A DNA stretch of 32,492 nucleotides from positions 1 to 32,492 of IMG/VR virus record IMGVR_UViG_2744054675_000007, one strand, 5' to 3'. The notes under the pieces were generated by a model. It made no database searches. It was given only the letters and a program-made list of their open reading frames with translations, and had not been told where the DNA came from. A program made the translations under genes and the position numbers. This document shows positions 7,469 through 20,407 of the stretch, in pieces; the first letter of the stretch is position 1; each line of letters opens with the position of its first letter. This DNA comes from a virus (lineage: Duplodnaviria; Heunggongvirae; Uroviricota; Caudoviricetes).

Positions 7469-8357
7469 CCTCCAGTTTTGCTTTGCATTCTGCGTAAATG
7501 GCTTGTACGTTCTGCTGCAATTTCATTCCAGATGTCAGGCGATATGCTTCTGCAAAATATCGCTTCAAATCATCCATGTTTTCTGCCTGAGCCATTTCAT
7601 CACAAAGAAGTTGTGCTTTTTCCATTATTTCCTGCTGGCGTTTCCGTTCATCTTCGCGGATATCTTCCTCTGATTTGTGCGGCATAACTGGTTCAGTCCA
7701 CACACCTTCTTCTTCGTTTAGTACGTGAATAGCACTATCAAGACGTGATGCCTTAGGCCAATACTTGCTTGCACGCTTTACGACCGTCTTTCGCGCCATC
7801 TCATTCCAGTGATTTACCCATGGTCCTTTATCGCTGAATGCTGCCTTGCTTGTTTTCCTTACAGCCTCAATTTCAGCCAGACTCATCTCTTCCGTTAGAT
7901 AATCACCTGCTGGCGTCTTAACTGTGCAGTAAACGCCAACGATATCACCACGATCACCGAAGGCGTTGTATTTATGGGTTGGTGCTTTATCAAGCCCGTT
8001 TGACTCATAGGTATCGTTAGCATGAACAAGTTTTGCCTGACCCCATGAGATAACACCAGACTCCATTGCAATATGGAGCAATCCCATATAACTGATATCA
8101 AGGCAAACCATGCCGTCGCGCGGAACTAGATAAGCAAGTTTGCTGGCCGGGTTTAAGGTGATGCCGATCGCCGCAACATTGATGATGGCGTTCTGTGCGC
8201 TGGTTGGATTTGCCAGTGCCGTTTTAGCCAGGTAATCGTTTTTCTGGAAATACTGAATTGCAAACTGGCTTTCCTTAGCCCATGTCACCGTCTGTTCAGT
8301 CAATGCTCCGCAGAATAACTGCTCCTGCTGTTTAACGAATTCAACGATATTGCTCAT
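7446..8357 (-). CDS. recT: RecT-family single-strand annealing recombinase
   Basis: 303 aa; segment GPWVNHWNEMARKTVVKRASKYWP matches my recollection of E. coli RecT (GPWVTHWEEMAKKTAIRRLFKYLP). Confidence 0.85.
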   Translation of the reverse strand: MSNIVEFVKQQEQLFCGALTEQTVTWAKESQFAIQYFQKNDYLAKTALANPTSAQNAIINVAAIGITLNPASKLAYLVPRDGMVCLDISYMGLLHIAMESGVISWGQAKLVHANDTYESNGLDKAPTHKYNAFGDRGDIVGVYCTVKTPAGDYLTEEMSLAEIEAVRKTSKAAFSDKGPWVNHWNEMARKTVVKRASKYWPKASRLDSAIHVLNEEEGVWTEPVMPHKSEEDIREDERKRQQEIMEKAQLLCDEMAQAENMDDLKRYFAEAYRLTSGMKLQQNVQAIYAECKAKLEVASEQTI

Positions 8358-8665
8358 GCAGCTTCTCCAAAAATGTGTCTGCGTTTGAATATTGCGAAGG
8401 CATATTCAGCCTTAACTCTTTCGGTTATTGCATCCCAGAACCATTCAGCGGCTTTTTCCTGATAGTTACAGTCATCATCTTCCAGCCAGTCGATAGCGTC
8501 CTTAGTGTGTTCATCTGGTTTATATGAGCGAAGCATTTCGCTTATTGGGTCGCAACGTTTGCAGAGGAGATCAACTTCACTGTTGATTCGCTCGTAATCT
8601 TCATCAGTAAAACTTGCGATTATTTGCGATATTTCACGCTTATCATTCAGAGTCAGAATCATCAT
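8354..8665 (-). CDS. hypothetical protein, 103 aa
   Basis: ORF whose stop overlaps the recT start (ATGA-type coupling). Confidence 0.5.
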   Translation of the reverse strand: MMILTLNDKREISQIIASFTDEDYERINSEVDLLCKRCDPISEMLRSYKPDEHTKDAIDWLEDDDCNYQEKAAEWFWDAITERVKAEYAFAIFKRRHIFGEAA

Positions 8666-9321: not shown

Positions 9322-9573
9322 TCAGGCAGCCTTGTTGTAAATGTTGCAGGTATCAAGTAAGTAATTAGATGGAGCGACATAAATTATGAATTCAGCGTTT
9401 GTCGGGTCCATCTCCATCTCTTGGCCTATTGCCATTCTTGCGTCAGTGTCATCAGCGGCGAAGCATAAAACAGCCCACGCACCCATTGTTTTAAAAAGAA
9501 CTGCAATTGGCTGTGGTTTTACTGAATTTGCGTTAGCGCGAAAATCATAAATCGCACTTTCATGAAATTCCAT
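9322..9573 (-). CDS. hypothetical early protein, 83 aa
   Basis: ORF with GAGGTG RBS before the ATG at 9573; directly downstream of N. Confidence 0.5.
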   Translation of the reverse strand: MEFHESAIYDFRANANSVKPQPIAVLFKTMGAWAVLCFAADDTDARMAIGQEMEMDPTNAEFIIYVAPSNYLLDTCNIYNKAA

Positions 9574-9581
9574 ATCTCACC

Positions 9582-9887
9582 TCAATCGTAATAAGCTGGA
9601 ATTGATTTTCCGCGTTGCTTCTGGCGGCCTGAGCATGTCACACCCATTTCACTGCGTGGCTTGCTGTAGTAAATACGATTCTGTTTACGATCGACTTCTT
9701 CTGCTTTCTTGCAGCGAAGGCTTCCGAGTGAAGCTGCTTTGTCTGCTCTGACGCAACCAGAGAGCTTTAGCGCAATCTTTCGCGCCAGTCGCTGTTCTTG
9801 CATTGCCTGTTCACGTTGAGCCTGTCTGCGTGCTCTGCGGCGATTTCTGGCGTTATCGTCAGCCAGATATGTAATGACTACTGTCAT
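9582..9887 (-). CDS. N: antitermination protein N (lambda-like)
   Basis: Arg-rich motif NARNRRRARRQAQREQ near the N-terminus and a C-terminus (YYSKPRSEMGVTCSGRQKQRGKSIP) matching my recollection of lambda N (WYSKPGERGITCSGRQKIKGKSIP); GGAGG RBS; downstream of nutL. Confidence 0.75.
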   Translation of the reverse strand: MTVVITYLADDNARNRRRARRQAQREQAMQEQRLARKIALKLSGCVRADKAASLGSLRCKKAEEVDRKQNRIYYSKPRSEMGVTCSGRQKQRGKSIPAYYD

Positions 9888-10286
9888 GTTGACCTCCGAT
9901 GAAACAACTTTGGAATTTTTTTATTACAAAGTGGTTTCCTTCCCCGCCAATTAGACGGGGATGGAAGAGCATTTATGAGCCTTCATGGACTCTGCTCGAT
10001 CAGTTCTATTTAATTAATCTCTCAACTGAATGTAAGTATTCACATAAATCCTCCTACCTCTTGTGCAGCTTTCTTGAATATGGTGGCGGCTGCATAACGC
10101 CTATGGAATTGACTTTGGCGATTGGATGGCCGGTGCTGAACTCCGGCTTACTGGTTAGAGCGCCCGCACTACCAGTGACGCTGTCTTGAGGCGCAGATTG
10201 GTTACTGCTTGCCATGAGCGCTGTTTATACATTGGTCGAGCATCAGCCTGCTCATTCATCCAATCCCAAAGCCAACTACTCTTTGG

Positions 10287-10328
10287 TTCCCGCATTTCGG
10301 CGGGACAATCCCATCAATGTTAAAGAGC
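10287..10328 (-). promoter_or_regulatory. putative nutL (boxA-like GCTCTTTAACA plus boxB-like hairpin)
   Basis: Minus-strand GCTCTTTAACA followed by hairpin GTCCCGCCGAAATGCGGGAA; the same boxA and near-identical hairpin recur on the plus strand after cro. Confidence 0.5.
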
Positions 10329-10369
10329 CTGCCAATCTGTTCCGTTTGGCTACCAGCGTCCTGCTGATG

Positions 10370-10410
10370 GCTTAAATTTAAGATCTCTTTAATTAATGGT
10401 CAAGAGTATT
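10370..10410 (-). promoter_or_regulatory. putative OL/PL (leftward early promoter overlapping a P22-type operator)
   Basis: Minus-strand TTGACC (-35), 17 bp, TAAATT (-10) overlapping inverted-repeat ATTTAAGATCTCTTTAAT that resembles the operators next to cro. Confidence 0.4.
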
Positions 10411-10477
10411 TTTGAAGAAAACTTAAATTTTTTTTCGTAACTTAAGTTTGGCTTTGATTTTTAAAGGAAATAAAAAA

Positions 10478-10496
10478 AAAGGGGCGAATGCCCCCT
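10478..10496 (-). terminator. rho-independent terminator directly after the c2 stop codon
   Basis: Minus-strand GGGGGCATTCGCCCC followed by a run of nine T. Confidence 0.55.
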
Positions 10497-11146
10497 TATG
10501 GAAGGTTTGCTAGTTTTGCATCGACAACTACGCCGATGATTTTGCAGTTTCCGTTGATCTCGATCATCGGATATTGTGGGTTAAGTGGTTTTAGAAACTT
10601 CCTGCCTGCATCAATAACTAACTTCTTGAAAGTTGCCTCGTTTTCTCCTTCGAGCTTTGCAACTACCAGTTTCCCGTTACGCGGCTCTACTTCAGGATCG
10701 ACGAGTATTATCATTCCTTCAGGGATACTGAGACCGGCCGGAGCCGTCATTGAGTCTCCCTTCACGTCCAACCAAAACGAATCTTCTGAACAGTCTACGG
10801 TTGTATCGTACCAGTTATCTATTGCACGCTTATGATATGGTTCCACAGCTTCCATCCAGCATCCTGCGCTCACCCAGCTAATCAGAGGGTATGACCCTCT
10901 TGGATCATGCCTACTGTGATAGGCAATGTTTGAAAGACTTTCCTCTCCTTTCATCAGATAGTCAGGGGAACACTTCAACGCATTAGCCAGGGCGAGAAGA
11001 TTCTCTCCATTTGGCTCTGTCTCAGAGCGTTCCCACTGAGATATGGCAACATTAGACACGCCGACCATCTTTCCAAGTGCGGCCTGCCTGATCTTGAGTT
11101 CTTTTCTCCGAGCGCGAATGCGCTCTCCCATCAATTGAGTTTTCAT
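10496..11146 (-). CDS. c2: CI-type prophage repressor (HTH plus S24 LexA-like autopeptidase domain), P22 C2-like
   Basis: 216 aa; N-terminal HTH (IRQAALGKMVGVSNVAISQWERSE); C-terminal S24 motifs (GDSM Ser and downstream KK); matches my recollection of P22 C2; divergent from cro. Confidence 0.9.
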   Translation of the reverse strand: MKTQLMGERIRARRKELKIRQAALGKMVGVSNVAISQWERSETEPNGENLLALANALKCSPDYLMKGEESLSNIAYHSRHDPRGSYPLISWVSAGCWMEAVEPYHKRAIDNWYDTTVDCSEDSFWLDVKGDSMTAPAGLSIPEGMIILVDPEVEPRNGKLVVAKLEGENEATFKKLVIDAGRKFLKPLNPQYPMIEINGNCKIIGVVVDAKLANLP

Positions 11147-11226
11147 AGTTAAGACATCTTAAATAAACTTGACTTAAGATTCCTTTAGTGGATAATTTAA
11201 GTGTTCTTTAATTTCGGAGCGAGTCT
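11147..11226 (+). promoter_or_regulatory. OR operator/promoter region (PR rightward; PRM presumably leftward)
   Basis: Three TTAAG...CTTAA-type inverted repeats (AGTTAAGACATCTTAAAT, ACTTAAGATTCC..., ATTTAAGTGTTCTTTAAT); TTGACT at 11169..11174 and GATAAT at 11191..11196; GGAG RBS before cro. Confidence 0.55.
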
Positions 11227-11412
11227 ATGTACAAGAAAGATGTTATCGACCACTTCGGAACCCAGCGTGCTGTAGCTAAAGCGTTAGGCATTAGCGACGC
11301 AGCAGTCTCTCAGTGGAAGGAAGTCATCCCAGAGAAAGACGCCTATCGACTGGAAGTCGTTACAGCTGGCGCCCTGAAGTATCAAGAAAGCGCTTACCGC
11401 AAAGCGGCATAA
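11227..11412 (+). CDS. cro: Cro-type repressor (P22 Cro-like)
   Basis: 61 aa with HTH QRAVAKALGISDAAVSQW; divergent from c2 across the operator region; matches my recollection of P22 Cro. Confidence 0.9.
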   Translation: MYKKDVIDHFGTQRAVAKALGISDAAVSQWKEVIPEKDAYRLEVVTAGALKYQESAYRKAA

Positions 11413-11419
11413 GCAAATT

Positions 11420-11463
11420 GCTCTTTAACAGTCATGGTCCTCATTCCCGCCGAAATGCGGGAA
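11420..11463 (+). promoter_or_regulatory. putative nutR (boxA-like plus boxB-like hairpin)
   Basis: GCTCTTTAACA followed by hairpin TTCCCGCCGAAATGCGGGAA between cro and cII; mirror copy of the nutL element. Confidence 0.5.
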
Positions 11464-11520
11464 TACAACGCGCATAAGTTGATGCGCATAACTTCTTATT
11501 TGTTAAGGAAATACTTACAT

Positions 11521-11814
11521 ATGGTTCTTGCAAACAAACGCAACGAGGCTCTACGAATCGAGAGTGCGTTGCTTAACAAAATCGCAATGCTTGGAACTGA
11601 GAAGACAGCGGAAGCTGTGGGAGTTGATAAGTCGCAGATCAGCAGGTGGAAGAGGGATTGGATTCCAAAGTTCTCAATGCTGCTTGCTGTTCTTGAATGG
11701 GGTGTCGTTGACGACGACATGGCTCGATTGGCACGACAAGTTGCTTCGATTCTCACCAATAAAAAACGCCCGGCGGCAACCGAGCGTTCTGAACAAATAC
11801 AAATGGAATTTTAA
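11521..11814 (+). CDS. cII: CII-type transcriptional activator (lambda cII-like)
   Basis: 97 aa from the ATG after TAAGGAAATACTTACAT; near-identical to lambda CII as I recall it (MV.ANKRNEALRIESALLNKIAMLGTEKTAEAVGVDKSQISRWKRDWIPKF...). Confidence 0.85.
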   Translation: MVLANKRNEALRIESALLNKIAMLGTEKTAEAVGVDKSQISRWKRDWIPKFSMLLAVLEWGVVDDDMARLARQVASILTNKKRPAATERSEQIQMEF

Positions 11815-11836
11815 TAACATCCAACGAGGTAATTAT

Positions 11837-12109
11837 ATGCGAAACAAAGGCTTTAATCCACCTGATACACACAAAGAAGCTAAGCGTTTGCGCTTCCTTC
11901 GTTCCATTGATGAAAGAACTCAAATCTCTTTTGTGAAAGTTGCCAGAACTGAGCTTCTGAAGGCTGAGGCGAGGGCGTTGCTCCCGTCCCTACCAAAAGA
12001 GGAGGGATATACGTTCATTCCAAACGCATTTCTGGAAAAGCTGCTCAAAGAAGACATATCCGTAAGTCAGTTTAACGATGTTCTTAAGGTCTTTCGTCAA
12101 GGCAGGTAG
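11837..12109 (+). CDS. hypothetical protein, 90 aa
   Basis: GAGG RBS before ATG at 11837 (MRNKGFNPPDTHKEAKRLRFL...); the longer track ORF from 11528 overlaps cII out of frame and is rejected. Confidence 0.5.
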   Translation: MRNKGFNPPDTHKEAKRLRFLRSIDERTQISFVKVARTELLKAEARALLPSLPKEEGYTFIPNAFLEKLLKEDISVSQFNDVLKVFRQGR

Positions 12110-17136: not shown

Positions 17137-17321
17137 ACGCCACAATTCAAACGATACCAGAGCTTCTTATCCAGACACGAGGCAATCAGACCGAAGTGGC
17201 GAGGATGCTTTCCTGCGCAAGAGGAACAGTGCTCAAGTACAACCGAGACAGCAAAGGCGAGCGTCACGTAATAGTTAACGGCGTCCTGATGGTCAAACAG
17301 GGCAAGAGGGGAAGACGATGA
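17133..17321 (+). CDS. ninH: NinH-family protein
   Basis: 62 aa; TIPELLIQTRGNQTEVARMLSCARGTVLKY resembles lambda NinH (TIPDMLVEAYGNQTEVARRLKCSRGTVRKY). Confidence 0.75.
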   Translation: MNATIQTIPELLIQTRGNQTEVARMLSCARGTVLKYNRDSKGERHVIVNGVLMVKQGKRGRR

Positions 17322-17836
17322 GCATAAGAGAACTAAACCTCACCAAAGAGCAGCACGAGTGGCTGAATGGCTGGCTTGAACTGTGGGGCGCATGGGTTTA
17401 TTCAGGTCGTCTGGAAAAGCGCATGAGCAGCGTAATAGCGAAGTTCATGGAGAGCGTAGAGCCGGGAAGAATTATGACAAGGCCAATGTGTAATGATGAT
17501 GATGGAATGTTGATTTCTCAGGTCGTCGATTCCGTCATGTACATTGACAAGAAAGCCTTTGGCATCCTCCTCAGCTACTACGCTCATGGTTCATCTAAGC
17601 GAGCAATTGCATCCTACTATCACGCGACTGCAAAGCCACGCAAGATGTGTGGACGTGGTGGCGAGGGATGGAGAAAACCTTCACTGGCAACCTGTAGAAA
17701 CGAAATTGACGACATCCTGAAAGCGTCGTTATTTGTTTTGTACCAGCCAATGCAAAATGCTTTCAAAATGCGTAAACGTGTTGAGAAAGTTAAGCATGTT
17801 GCTGTTAAAAACCTTGACATGCAATTAGCCATTTAG
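17318..17836 (+). CDS. Q: late-gene antiterminator Q (family uncertain)
   Basis: 172 aa ORF at the canonical Q position between ninH and the late promoter/lysis genes; Cys/His-containing; assignment mainly positional. Confidence 0.55.
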   Translation: MSIRELNLTKEQHEWLNGWLELWGAWVYSGRLEKRMSSVIAKFMESVEPGRIMTRPMCNDDDGMLISQVVDSVMYIDKKAFGILLSYYAHGSSKRAIASYYHATAKPRKMCGRGGEGWRKPSLATCRNEIDDILKASLFVLYQPMQNAFKMRKRVEKVKHVAVKNLDMQLAI

Positions 17837-17898: not shown

Positions 17899-17973
17899 GG
17901 GTCAGTCGTATAAAGGTCATTACGGAAGGCTGTTAACCTTCTTATCGTGGTTCGAGTCCACGCTGTCCCGCCA
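17899..17973 (+). tRNA. phage-encoded tRNA-like gene, anticodon GTT (Asn)
   Basis: 75 nt hand-folded cloverleaf: acceptor GGGTCAG/CTGTCCC (one T-T mismatch), anticodon stem GAAGG/CCTTC with loop CTGTTAA, canonical T-arm CGTGG-TTCGAGT-CCACG, 3' GCCA. Confidence 0.45.
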
Positions 17974-17978
17974 AACAT

Positions 17979-18054
17979 GCTGATTTAGCTCCAATGGTAG
18001 AGCAGTCGCCTTGTAAGCGAATGGGTAGCGGGTCAAGTCCGTTAACCAGCACCA
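17979..18054 (+). tRNA. phage-encoded tRNA-like gene, anticodon TGT (Thr)
   Basis: 76 nt hand-folded cloverleaf: acceptor GCTGATT/AACCAGC (one mismatch), D-arm GCTC-CAATGGTA-GAGC, anticodon loop CTTGTAA, T-arm AGCGG-GTCAAGT-CCGTT, 3' ACCA. Confidence 0.45.
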
Positions 18055-19632: not shown

Positions 19633-20112
19633 ATGACCCAGCATATTGGCGTAAAACTGATTAACGCCTTTCCGATGACGAGACAGGCATATAACGATTT
19701 TCGTGGCTGGCAGCTTCCTGCCGGAGAAAACGGCGAGGACGAAGGCTATCTGGTTGAATATCTGGATGGCGGAAAACCTAACACCGATCGCTTTGATGGC
19801 TACGTTAGCTGGAGTCCAAAAGAAGTATTCGAAAAGGCTTATCGTCCTGTATCAGGGCTAAGTTTCGGCCTTGCCATGGAGGCGTTAAAACAGGGCAAGA
19901 GTTTGCAGCGGGCAGGATGGAATGGGAAAGACCAGTTTGTTTATCTCGTTAAAGGGGAAAAATTAGCGTCTGCGTTGGGTTATGGCTTTGGCGAATATGT
20001 TGGCGAGCCAACTTTCAATGACACGCTTGTATTGAAAAACTCACAGAACCGCCTTGCTACGTGGGTTCCATCCATTGGCGACCTGATGGCTGAAGACTGG
20101 CAAATCATTTAA
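19633..20112 (+). CDS. hypothetical protein with DUF2829-like (Tad2-like) C-terminal domain
   Basis: 159 aa; C-terminal half carries EALKQGKSLQRAGWNGK...FVYLV...WVPSIGDLMAEDWQII, which matches my recollection of the DUF2829 signature; N-terminal half has a weaker similar pattern. Confidence 0.5.
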   Translation: MTQHIGVKLINAFPMTRQAYNDFRGWQLPAGENGEDEGYLVEYLDGGKPNTDRFDGYVSWSPKEVFEKAYRPVSGLSFGLAMEALKQGKSLQRAGWNGKDQFVYLVKGEKLASALGYGFGEYVGEPTFNDTLVLKNSQNRLATWVPSIGDLMAEDWQII

Positions 20113-20407
20113 CCATGTAGGCATTACAAAGCACATCTACGGGTGGGCTTGATAATGAAACCGGAGTTAATTTCTGGTCACCAATTAACGGCAGTACAGC
20201 GAAACAACCCAAGCCAGTAAGTGGGGAAATAACACTGGCAGCCACTGAAAGATGAACCTCCTGCCTTATGGCAAAAAAGATTCTTTGTGGTGGCGGACTG
20301 ATGGAAAGACATCGGATAGAATAAAACAGTGGCTAGGGTAGCTCCCGAAAAGCGGAATCGTCACCGCCAGCCACTGAATCTATGACGAACAACTAGACGA
20401 GGTTGAT

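Follow-up and report, generated by a model that had tools for sequence, protein, structure and literature searches.

Does the N protein of a mosaic lambdoid immunity region fit the nut sites beside it when the boxB hairpins of those sites do not have the lambda loop? The question is raised by positions 9582 to 11463 of a 32,492-nucleotide (nt) stretch of viral DNA, IMG/VR record IMGVR_UViG_2744054675_000007 (here called the window). A preliminary description of this interval had read it as lambda-like N and cII genes around a P22-type c2/cro core with mirrored nut elements. We identified the interval as the immunity (early-regulation) region of an Escherichia coli prophage that is P22-like and of the CUS-3 type; by sequence comparison, the region is built from known lambdoid modules. 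With a probability of about 0.85, it would hold a working N/nut antitermination module of HK620 specificity within a phage 21/P22-type immunity core, together with a lambda-type cII. The calls of its four genes (N, c2, cro, and cII) all held, and the region is a mosaic as described, with parts that trace to HK620, 21/P22, and lambda.

The two nut sites are central to this reading. The boxA sequence GCTCTTTAACA occurs exactly twice in the window, at 10318 to 10328 on the minus strand and at 11420 to 11430 on the plus strand. Alone, boxA is a weak signal, as 18 of 100 shuffled sequences reached at least two matches at one mismatch or fewer. The hairpin core CCCGCCGAAATGCGGG also occurs exactly twice, at 10289 to 10304 (minus) and 11446 to 11461 (plus), and two copies were reached in none of 100 shuffles. 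A repeat finder reported the hairpins as a perfect 19-nt inverted repeat, TCCCGCCGAAATGCGGGAA, at 10287 to 10305 and 11445 to 11463. We found that both boxB copies (18-mer hairpin sequence, UCCCGCCGAAAUGCGGGA) fold with the 6-nt loop CGAAAU, on a stem of 6 bp (nutL) or 8 bp (nutR). Each lies downstream of a boxA on the strand read from the adjacent promoter, with a spacer of 12 nt at nutL and 14 nt at nutR. The sense strand of both early transcripts carries a CGCUCUUUAACA-like boxA and then a boxB hairpin, with nutL between pL and N and nutR between cro and cII, as in lambda, 21, P22, and HK620.

The nutL boxA, GCUCUUUAACA, lies in a leader segment conserved across lambda, 21, P22, and HK620, and the nutL boxB, UCCCGC-CGAAAU-GCGGGA, occupies 10288 to 10305 on the minus strand. 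At nutR, the same boxA is followed by the boxB AUUCCCGC-CGAAAU-GCGGGAAU (11443 to 11464, plus strand). At both sites, boxA, spacer, and boxB are base for base those annotated as nut sites in HK620, and the stretch from nutR to the cII start codon is also identical to HK620. The HK620 N, nutL, and nutR features are those of GenBank record NC_002730 (Clark et al., 2001, J Mol Biol 311:657, as cited in that record and in PMC2629481). Position, sense orientation, and identity to the HK620 features all support the earlier assignment of the inverted repeats as nutL and nutR, and the repeat is present in a related phage. Homology to phage 21 and P22 ends immediately past boxA on both sides; at nutR, the phage 21 junction falls just after boxA. 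This suggests that the conserved boxA and leader sequences act as the recombination joints of the mosaic.

The N gene (9582 to 9887, minus strand) is the first open reading frame (ORF) downstream of pL and encodes a mosaic transcription antiterminator of 101 aa. We found that it matches PHROG 271, "anti-termination protein N-like" (7.9e-36), and is 63/99 identical to phage 21 N overall, which supports the ORF as a homolog of N. The closest full-length relative is the N of phage HF4s (98/101). Residues 1 to 64 are 98 to 100% identical to HK620 and mEp213 N (98% for HK620 alone) and include the arginine-rich motif (ARM) NARNRRRARRQAQREQ. Residues 37 to 97 are of the phage 21 type (88% identical to phage 21 N), and residues 63 to 101 are 77% identical to Sf6 gp37 and 60% identical to lambda N. 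In a comparison with solved structures, residues 62 to 98 matched residues 74 to 109 of lambda N (PDB 6GOV chain N; E = 3.2e-7), and the N-terminal ARM scored only 1 bit against lambda N. Thus, the earlier claim that N matches lambda N at both ends did not hold, as only residues 62 to 98 gave a significant match. The C-terminal tail is a homolog of the part of lambda N that contacts RNA polymerase. With both ARM and boxB as in HK620, the locus falls, by sequence, into the HK620-type class of N specificity.

Upstream of N, the Shine-Dalgarno (SD) sequence GGAGG (9893 to 9897, minus strand; context, CAUCGGAGGUCAACAUG) is identical in HK620, HF4s, Gally, IME10, and CUS-3. HK620 is alike in N residues 1 to 64, the N SD, both nut sites, and the stretch from nutR to the cII start. 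It differs in having a 434/L-like cI, a lambda-like cro, a P22-c1-like cII, and an H-19B/P22-like N C terminus. The CUS-3 N has a phage-21-like C terminus (ending in VGRQKMKLGSKPLI), whereas the N of the window ends in SGRQKQRGKSIPAYYD. HK620-type N is present in 508 of 5,426 complete E. coli genomes (~9%). In RefSeq E. coli genomes, HK620-type N is mostly named "hypothetical protein" by PGAP. As a separate observation, mEp213 (NC_019720) has two N genes, one HK244/lambda-like and one HK620-like, and the boxB upstream of its HK620-like N has a stem-breaking substitution (CCCTCCGAAATGCGGG).

We scored the pairing of ARM type with boxB type in two samples drawn from IMG/VR contigs and annotated phages, with some contigs in both (116 ARM-to-nutL pairings in total), the first sample chosen by an unrelated leader motif and the second by N peptide patterns. 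In the first sample, we found the HK620-type ARM with TCCCGCCGAAATGCGGGA at nutL in 58/58 loci, and an inverted second copy lay within the fetched locus in 47. The second sample gave the same boxB at nutL in 58/58 loci and a second copy in 57. Phage-21-type ARMs carried the phage 21 boxB (9/9, second sample), and P22-type ARMs accompany the GACAA boxB. The c2/cro core was found with three ARM/boxB pairs (P22, 21, and HK620-type), and both nut sites matched the ARM each time. ARM type therefore covaries with boxB type across phages, as a cognate recognition pair predicts, and the ARM probably binds the boxB with which it travels. The HK620-type ARM has a CGAAAU boxB in all 116 pairings; therefore, the locus has no N-boxB specificity mismatch. 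Together with the existing annotation of these nut sites in HK620, this largely dissolves the question about N-boxB specificity raised in the preliminary description.

We weighed two other explanations of the locus. One is that a lambda-like N sits on a non-lambda boxB, either with relaxed specificity or as a mismatched, recently recombined, and possibly nonfunctional pair. The C-terminal 37 residues of N do resemble lambda N, the ARM has the generic A-x-x-RRR-x-RR pattern as in lambda, and the neighboring cII is that of lambda. However, the ARM itself (MTVVITYLADDNARNRRRARRQAQREQ) is closest to that of P22 gp24 (15/27 identical, versus 10/24 for lambda) and is not significant against lambda N, and its near-identity to HK620 and mEp213 N and its pairing with the CGAAAU boxB in every locus scored, at both nut sites, also argue against a lambda-like N. 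In lambda N-boxB nuclear magnetic resonance (NMR) structures, Trp18 has a role in boxB recognition. We found no Trp in residues 1 to 40 of the N in the window, so the ARM is not of the lambda kind (N residues 1 to 22 with Trp18), and on inspection of the sequence, the position equivalent to Trp18 is not aromatic. We consider a lambda-like N on a foreign boxB very improbable.

The other explanation takes the mirrored hairpins as DNA-level features, such as end repeats of an immunity cassette, a protein-binding palindrome, or intrinsic terminators. The hairpins flank the c2-cro core symmetrically, they stand exactly at the junctions where phage 21 and P22 homology ends, and the left intergenic region of CUS-3 is annotated as a "boundary sequence." Nevertheless, a boxA precedes each copy by 12 to 14 nt, and each is read in the sense direction from pL or pR; no U run comes after either copy, and a terminator scan called neither. 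In addition, lambda, 21, and P22 have different hairpins at both places, which covary with the N ARM and not with the repressor. Nut function would not preclude a role in recombination, and such a role fits the conserved boxA and leader sequence better. Purely DNA-level hairpins are thus about as improbable as a lambda-like N, and we favor an HK620-type N acting at its own nut sites.

How the HK620-type ARM might recognize its boxB is suggested by P22. The ARM takes up its fold only on RNA. The ARM of P22 gp24 is the closest outside the HK620 type, with an MTV-ITY start and an NA+xRR..RR core in common; the two ARMs differ at the hydrophobic positions, which are K-L-A-I in P22 and Q-A-Q-R in the window. 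Aligned with P22 boxB-right (ACCGC-CGACAAC-GCGGU versus CCCGC-CGAAAU-GCGGG), the boxB of the window is identical at 14 positions of a 19-column alignment with one gap, at a C; the two share the stem CCGC/GCGG and have a C preceding the G-A-A core. In the GACAA loop of P22, this C is the base extruded from a GNRA-like fold, as seen in NMR structures. Without it, the boxB is left with GAAA flanked by C and U, which could form a true hexaloop or, on a C-U mismatch, a GNRA tetraloop. The HK620-type ARM/boxB pair appears to be of the P22 lineage, minus the extruded loop base. It is a smaller possibility that HK620-type N recognizes a true GAAA tetraloop without an extruded base; if true, this would be a mode of recognition not yet characterized among N-boxB pairs. 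P22 gp24 with its boxB-left and boxB-right (PDB 1A4T, as cited in PMC6023938) is among the closest known systems.

Several points weigh against a working HK620-type module. The preliminary description was correct that the loop differs from the lambda pentaloop. A lambda boxB has a 5-nt GNRNA loop closed by U-A, and the loop here is the 6-nt CGAAAU closed by C-G, compared to 5-nt GNRA-like loops in both lambda and P22, so that the recognition geometry is a presumed one. The Pfam N_peptide model scored N at 16.9 bits, under its cutoff of 27.9. The HK620 features are labeled "putative," and we found no experimental study of HK620-type N binding its boxB in the searchable literature. Finally, the prophage could be defective elsewhere, and a leader cassette described below moves a long stem off the ribosome-binding site, so that the RNase III/autoregulation logic of lambda may not carry over unchanged.

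In the mechanism that we propose, C2 and Cro, with phage 21/P22 specificity, would control pL and pR through three operators at OL and three at OR. Both early transcripts would contain a nut site, boxA and then the boxB UCCCGC-CGAAAU-GCGGGA. N, made from the first pL gene, would bind the CGAAAU boxB through its HK620-type ARM and, with host Nus factors at boxA, would make RNA polymerase resistant to termination, its C-terminal tail contacting the polymerase as in lambda N. To the right of nutR lies the lambda-type cII, whose 5' end contains a pRE site of its own. The N leader is long and of the lambda type, with a predicted 20-bp stem that would serve as the RNase III and N-autoregulation element; two optional inserts enlarge the leader, one of which, the cassette, shifts the stem ~206 nt from the N ribosome-binding site. 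We observed the identities, positions, orientations, predicted folds, and co-occurrence of these parts. ARM-boxB binding, Nus-dependent antitermination, RNase III cleavage, and repressor specificity are presumed from the lambda, P22, and 21 paradigms.

The immunity core was of the phage 21/P22 type throughout. The c2 gene (10496 to 11146, minus strand) encodes a 216-aa repressor with HTH_3 and Peptidase_S24 domains (Pfam), which is 210/216 (97%) identical to phage 21 cI and 199/216 (92%) identical to P22 c2. The 61-aa Cro (11227 to 11412, plus strand) belongs to the P22_Cro family (Pfam; 8.7e-28) and is identical to phage 21 Cro at 59/61 positions and to P22 Cro at 58/61. It had been stated that c2 and cro match P22; the family is that of P22, but the nearest relative is coliphage 21. 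The repressor is therefore expected, by analogy, to have phage 21/P22-type specificity. P22 immC and phage 21 immunity are said to share specificity, which Botstein and Herskowitz reportedly found in 1974.

Repeats and alignment placed P22/21-type operators, of the ATTTAAG kind, on both sides of the repressor gene. OL1 (10376 to 10393), OL2 (10412 to 10429), and OL3 (about 10439 to 10456) span 10376 to 10456 and overlap pL. OR3 (11147 to 11164), OR2 (11172 to 11189), and OR1 (11195 to 11212) overlap pR/pRM, with 1 nt changed relative to phage 21 and 3 nt relative to P22 over 11147 to 11212. The half-operator pattern TTAAGN4CTT has six matches in the window, all in OL or OR, and none of 100 shuffles reached six; OL3 has one mismatch to the simple operator search pattern. 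A promoter scan called pL (10368 to 10403, minus strand) with a −35 of TTGACC at 10403 to 10398, a 17-nt spacer, and a −10 of TAAATT at 10380 to 10375, and it called pR (TTGACT-16-GATAAT) at 11169 to 11196 on the plus strand. By homology with the annotated phage 21 pL start, the pL transcript should begin with the A at 10368 (AUCAGCAGGACGC...). An intrinsic terminator after c2 (t-imm; 10478 to 10497, minus strand) is homologous to an annotated phage 21 terminator. In c2, Cro, OR, and OL, phage 21 and P22 are near-identical to the window; they differ in having their own N ARMs, their own boxBs (a CUAACC hexaloop in 21 and a GACAA pentaloop in P22), and their own cII/c1 genes.

To the right, cII (11521 to 11814, plus strand; 97 aa; Pfam Phage_CII, 3.5e-48) is identical to lambda cII at 95/97 positions, in agreement with its earlier assignment to the lambda type. 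A cII binding site, TTGCGTTTGTTTGC, in the pRE −35 region lies inside the 5' end of the gene (11530 to 11543, minus strand). An oop-like antisense terminator (11763 to 11790, minus strand) overlaps the 3' end of cII, in the position of the annotated P22 oop terminator. Sites resembling the cII site (TTGC-N6-TTGC) were not above chance in total (five found; five reached in 23 of 100 shuffles). Matches outside pRE lay at 8068 to 8081 (minus), 8614 to 8627 (plus), and 17630 to 17643 (minus), the last in a Q-type ORF, where lambda has paQ.

The leader of N was longer than that of HK620 and highly structured. The N ATG lies 400 nt from boxB, and the presumed pL start at 10368 gives N a 481-nt 5' untranslated region. 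The whole leader folds better than shuffled controls (z = −5.7, 0/100). A long stem has its 5' arm, GUUGGCUUUGGGAUUGGAUG, at 10257 to 10276 and, as placed by the fold, its 3' arm, CAUCCAAUCGCCAAAGUCAAU, at 10108 to 10128 (both minus strand); the arms are predicted to pair over 20 bp between boxB and the N SD, with outer pairs GGCUUUGGG/CCAAAG. Together with hairpins of the leader cassette, this agrees with the earlier account of a roughly 400-nt structured leader with further hairpins. The stem interior, a 128-nt "variant B" (10129 to 10256, minus strand) common to Gally, IME10, and Stx2_5044, is longer than the 41-nt interior of HK620 and CUS-3. The leaders of lambda, phage 21, P22, and HK620 are predicted to form the long stem too, keeping its outer pairs while the inner sequences change in a compensatory way. 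Compared with HK620/CUS-3 (GUGACGUG/CGCGUCAC) and lambda (GUGUGUG/CACACAC), the window has a compensatory swap of the inner 8 bp; phage 21 and P22 have inner sequences of their own.

The lambda N leader is alike in its start (AUCAGCAGGACGC) and in its order of boxA, boxB, long stem (GGCUUUGGG/CCAAAG outer pairs), SD, and AUG. It differs in its inner stem sequence and interior and lacks the 206-nt spacing. For lambda, RNase III and translational repression by N have both been linked to the structured region between nutL and the N SD (PMC5725501, citing Wilson et al., 1997 and 2002). By homology, the long stem of the window is presumably also an RNase III and N-autoregulation element. Its 3' arm does not abut the N ribosome-binding site: it lies 220 nt from the AUG in the window and in CUS-3, compared to 11 to 24 nt in lambda, 21, P22, HK620, and Gally, because of the 206-nt cassette. 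The minimal leader of HK620 is 147 nt from boxA to ATG, without the variant B interior or the 206-nt cassette, and that of the window, which carries these two inserts, is 441 nt. Among HK620-ARM loci, we found boxA-to-ATG distances of 147, 182, 234, 351 to 354, 371, 398, 441, and 601 to 604 nt. This range marks the N leader as a hot spot for optional inserts. A further insertion of ~250 nt directly after the nutL boxB occurs in phage mEp213 and in the Stx2c phage Stx2_5044, and the window does not have it.

No terminator or promoter was called inside the leader by the scans, and a GC-rich leader hairpin (CCCCGUC/GGCGGGG) has no U tract. We rejected two leader ORFs as genes. One of 53 aa (10054 to 10215, minus strand) crosses the cassette boundary, its frame is not conserved, and it has no Pfam or PHROG match; one of 37 aa (9859 to 9972, minus strand) also crosses the boundary, and its frame is not conserved between variants. 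The frames are lost between cassette variants because 2-nt indels shift them. Cassette-free leaders (HK620 locus 2424 to 2502; Gally) have a small upstream ORF of 25 to 41 aa, ending in KVNHRRST and then in ACATGA, the stop of which overlaps the N start codon in a coupling-like ATGA. This ORF is probably due to chance, as it lacks an SD and shows no conservation of its protein sequence.

The second insert is an optional noncoding leader cassette of 206 nt with five hairpins (9902 to 10107, minus strand), set exactly between the long-stem 3' arm and the N SD. It is absent from HK620, HF4s, Gally, and IME10 and present in CUS-3, and a distant blastn search against phages found it only in CUS-3 and HK140. 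We found it in 134 of 5,426 complete E. coli genomes, in two sequence variants (~99% and ~79% identity), and in 64 IMG/VR contigs. It lies upstream of N genes with HK620-type, P22-type, and H-19B-like ARMs. An alignment of 32 distinct cassette sequences gave five hairpins with conserved stems and variable loops. By Alifold and pair counts, 99.4% of the alignment cells were paired, versus 34 to 47% with the partners slid, and there were five compensatory pairs. Support for the structure is moderate, as no more than two or three lineages account for the changes and the alignment is also the one from which the structure was derived. Within the cassette is an invariant SD-AUG-UGA block, AGGAGGAUUUAUGUGAAU (10055 to 10038 on the minus strand; AUG, 10045 to 10043; UGA, 10042 to 10040). 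This 18-nt block, with its strong SD, was present in 37/37 elements retrieved by an independent pattern, and no reading frame was conserved across the cassette variants.

In searches for relatives of the cassette, Rfam gave no match (window at the gathering threshold; 9500 to 11900 at E ≤ 5), with nothing real in the interval and only weak chance matches, one of them over the oop terminator. Among GTDB species-representative genomes, the 18-nt motif gave only unrelated Firmicutes and other matches, and a full-text literature search found no description of, or experimental work on, the cassette. We rejected a put-like RNA by reasoning, with no search aimed at it, as the cassette is confined to the N leader, is absent from the pR operon, and is present alongside a complete N/nut system. 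As a separate observation, contig IMGVR_UViG_2558309087_000002 has, after its cassette, an extra ORF of 66 aa (MSSRISNEQKDRL...) that uses the SD normally serving N, and a divergent HK620-like N lies further downstream.

The likeliest role of the cassette is modulation of N translation or processing, and a tolerated scar is nearly as likely. A fuller claim, that it is a cis-regulatory RNA module for N expression that is new to description, horizontally exchanged, and shared by at least three classes of N specificity, is possible but tentative. Conversely, the cassette could be functionless hitchhiking DNA, a recombination scar between N leaders or a decayed small gene, that leaves the N SD intact; we rate this at slightly less than an even chance. 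It would fit a scar that the cassette is optional, being missing in close relatives and present in about one-quarter of the E. coli genomes with HK620-type N, that no Rfam family matches it, and that the compensatory changes stem from only two or three independent lineages. Its 3' end also resembles the 3' arm of the long stem (CCAAAGTTGTTT versus CCAAAGTCAAT, each followed by C; CCAAAGUUGUUU against CCAAAGUCAAU, each followed by C). This likeness hints at an origin by illegitimate or homologous exchange between leaders. On the other hand, a scar does not readily account for stems that are kept while loops vary, with the excess of paired positions and the compensatory pairs given above, for an SD-AUG-UGA block in every element retrieved, for the same precise position in the leaders of three N ARM classes, or for the z score of the whole-leader fold.

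The setting of the region agrees with its content. The whole window is a P22-like prophage with an integrase (1459 to 2619), a DnaB-like helicase, a Q-type antiterminator, and P22 portal and coat proteins, and it is integrated beside tRNA-Thr(CGT) (1369 to 1444). The interval is 99.0% identical to phage CUS-3 over 88% of its length and 97.8% identical to phage Gally over 91%. The CUS-3 record (GenBank CP000711; King et al., 2007, J Bacteriol, PMC1951898) annotates the same genes and names the N-cI spacer "boundary sequence." The module order in CUS-3 is also the same: N, a leader with the 206-nt cassette, c2, cro, and a lambda-type cII. The mosaic is thus already known, as the combination of modules is present in CUS-3 (2007) and Gally, and the nut sites were annotated in HK620 (2001).

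Elsewhere in the window, two phage-borne tRNA genes, Asn(GTT) (17899 to 17973) and Thr(TGT) (17979 to 18054), both on the plus strand, lie directly downstream of the Q-type antiterminator ORF (17318 to 17836). An ORF at 19633 to 20112 (plus strand), in the late region between the lysis and terminase genes, has a Tad2-like (Thoeris anti-defense 2) domain (Pfam PF11195; 6.4e-22). An Rfam match to int-alpA RNA (RF02996) at 20326 to 20388 (plus strand; 42 bits against a gathering score of 35.8) is oddly placed, in the late region and far from the integrase.

As first noted, the finding is a textbook lambdoid mosaic, and its exact combination of modules is already in GenBank. What it adds concerns N. 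Among E. coli prophages, HK620-type ARM/boxB pairs are common and apparently have not been characterized biochemically, and there is an annotation gap for this common class of antiterminator, the N proteins of which are mostly called hypothetical and fall below the Pfam N_peptide threshold. The SD-AUG-UGA cassette is conserved enough to be a modest lead on the control of N translation. If it is a regulatory module, it could free N translation from the autoregulatory loop of nutL and RNase III or, alternatively, could load ribosomes on an otherwise untranslated 480-nt leader.

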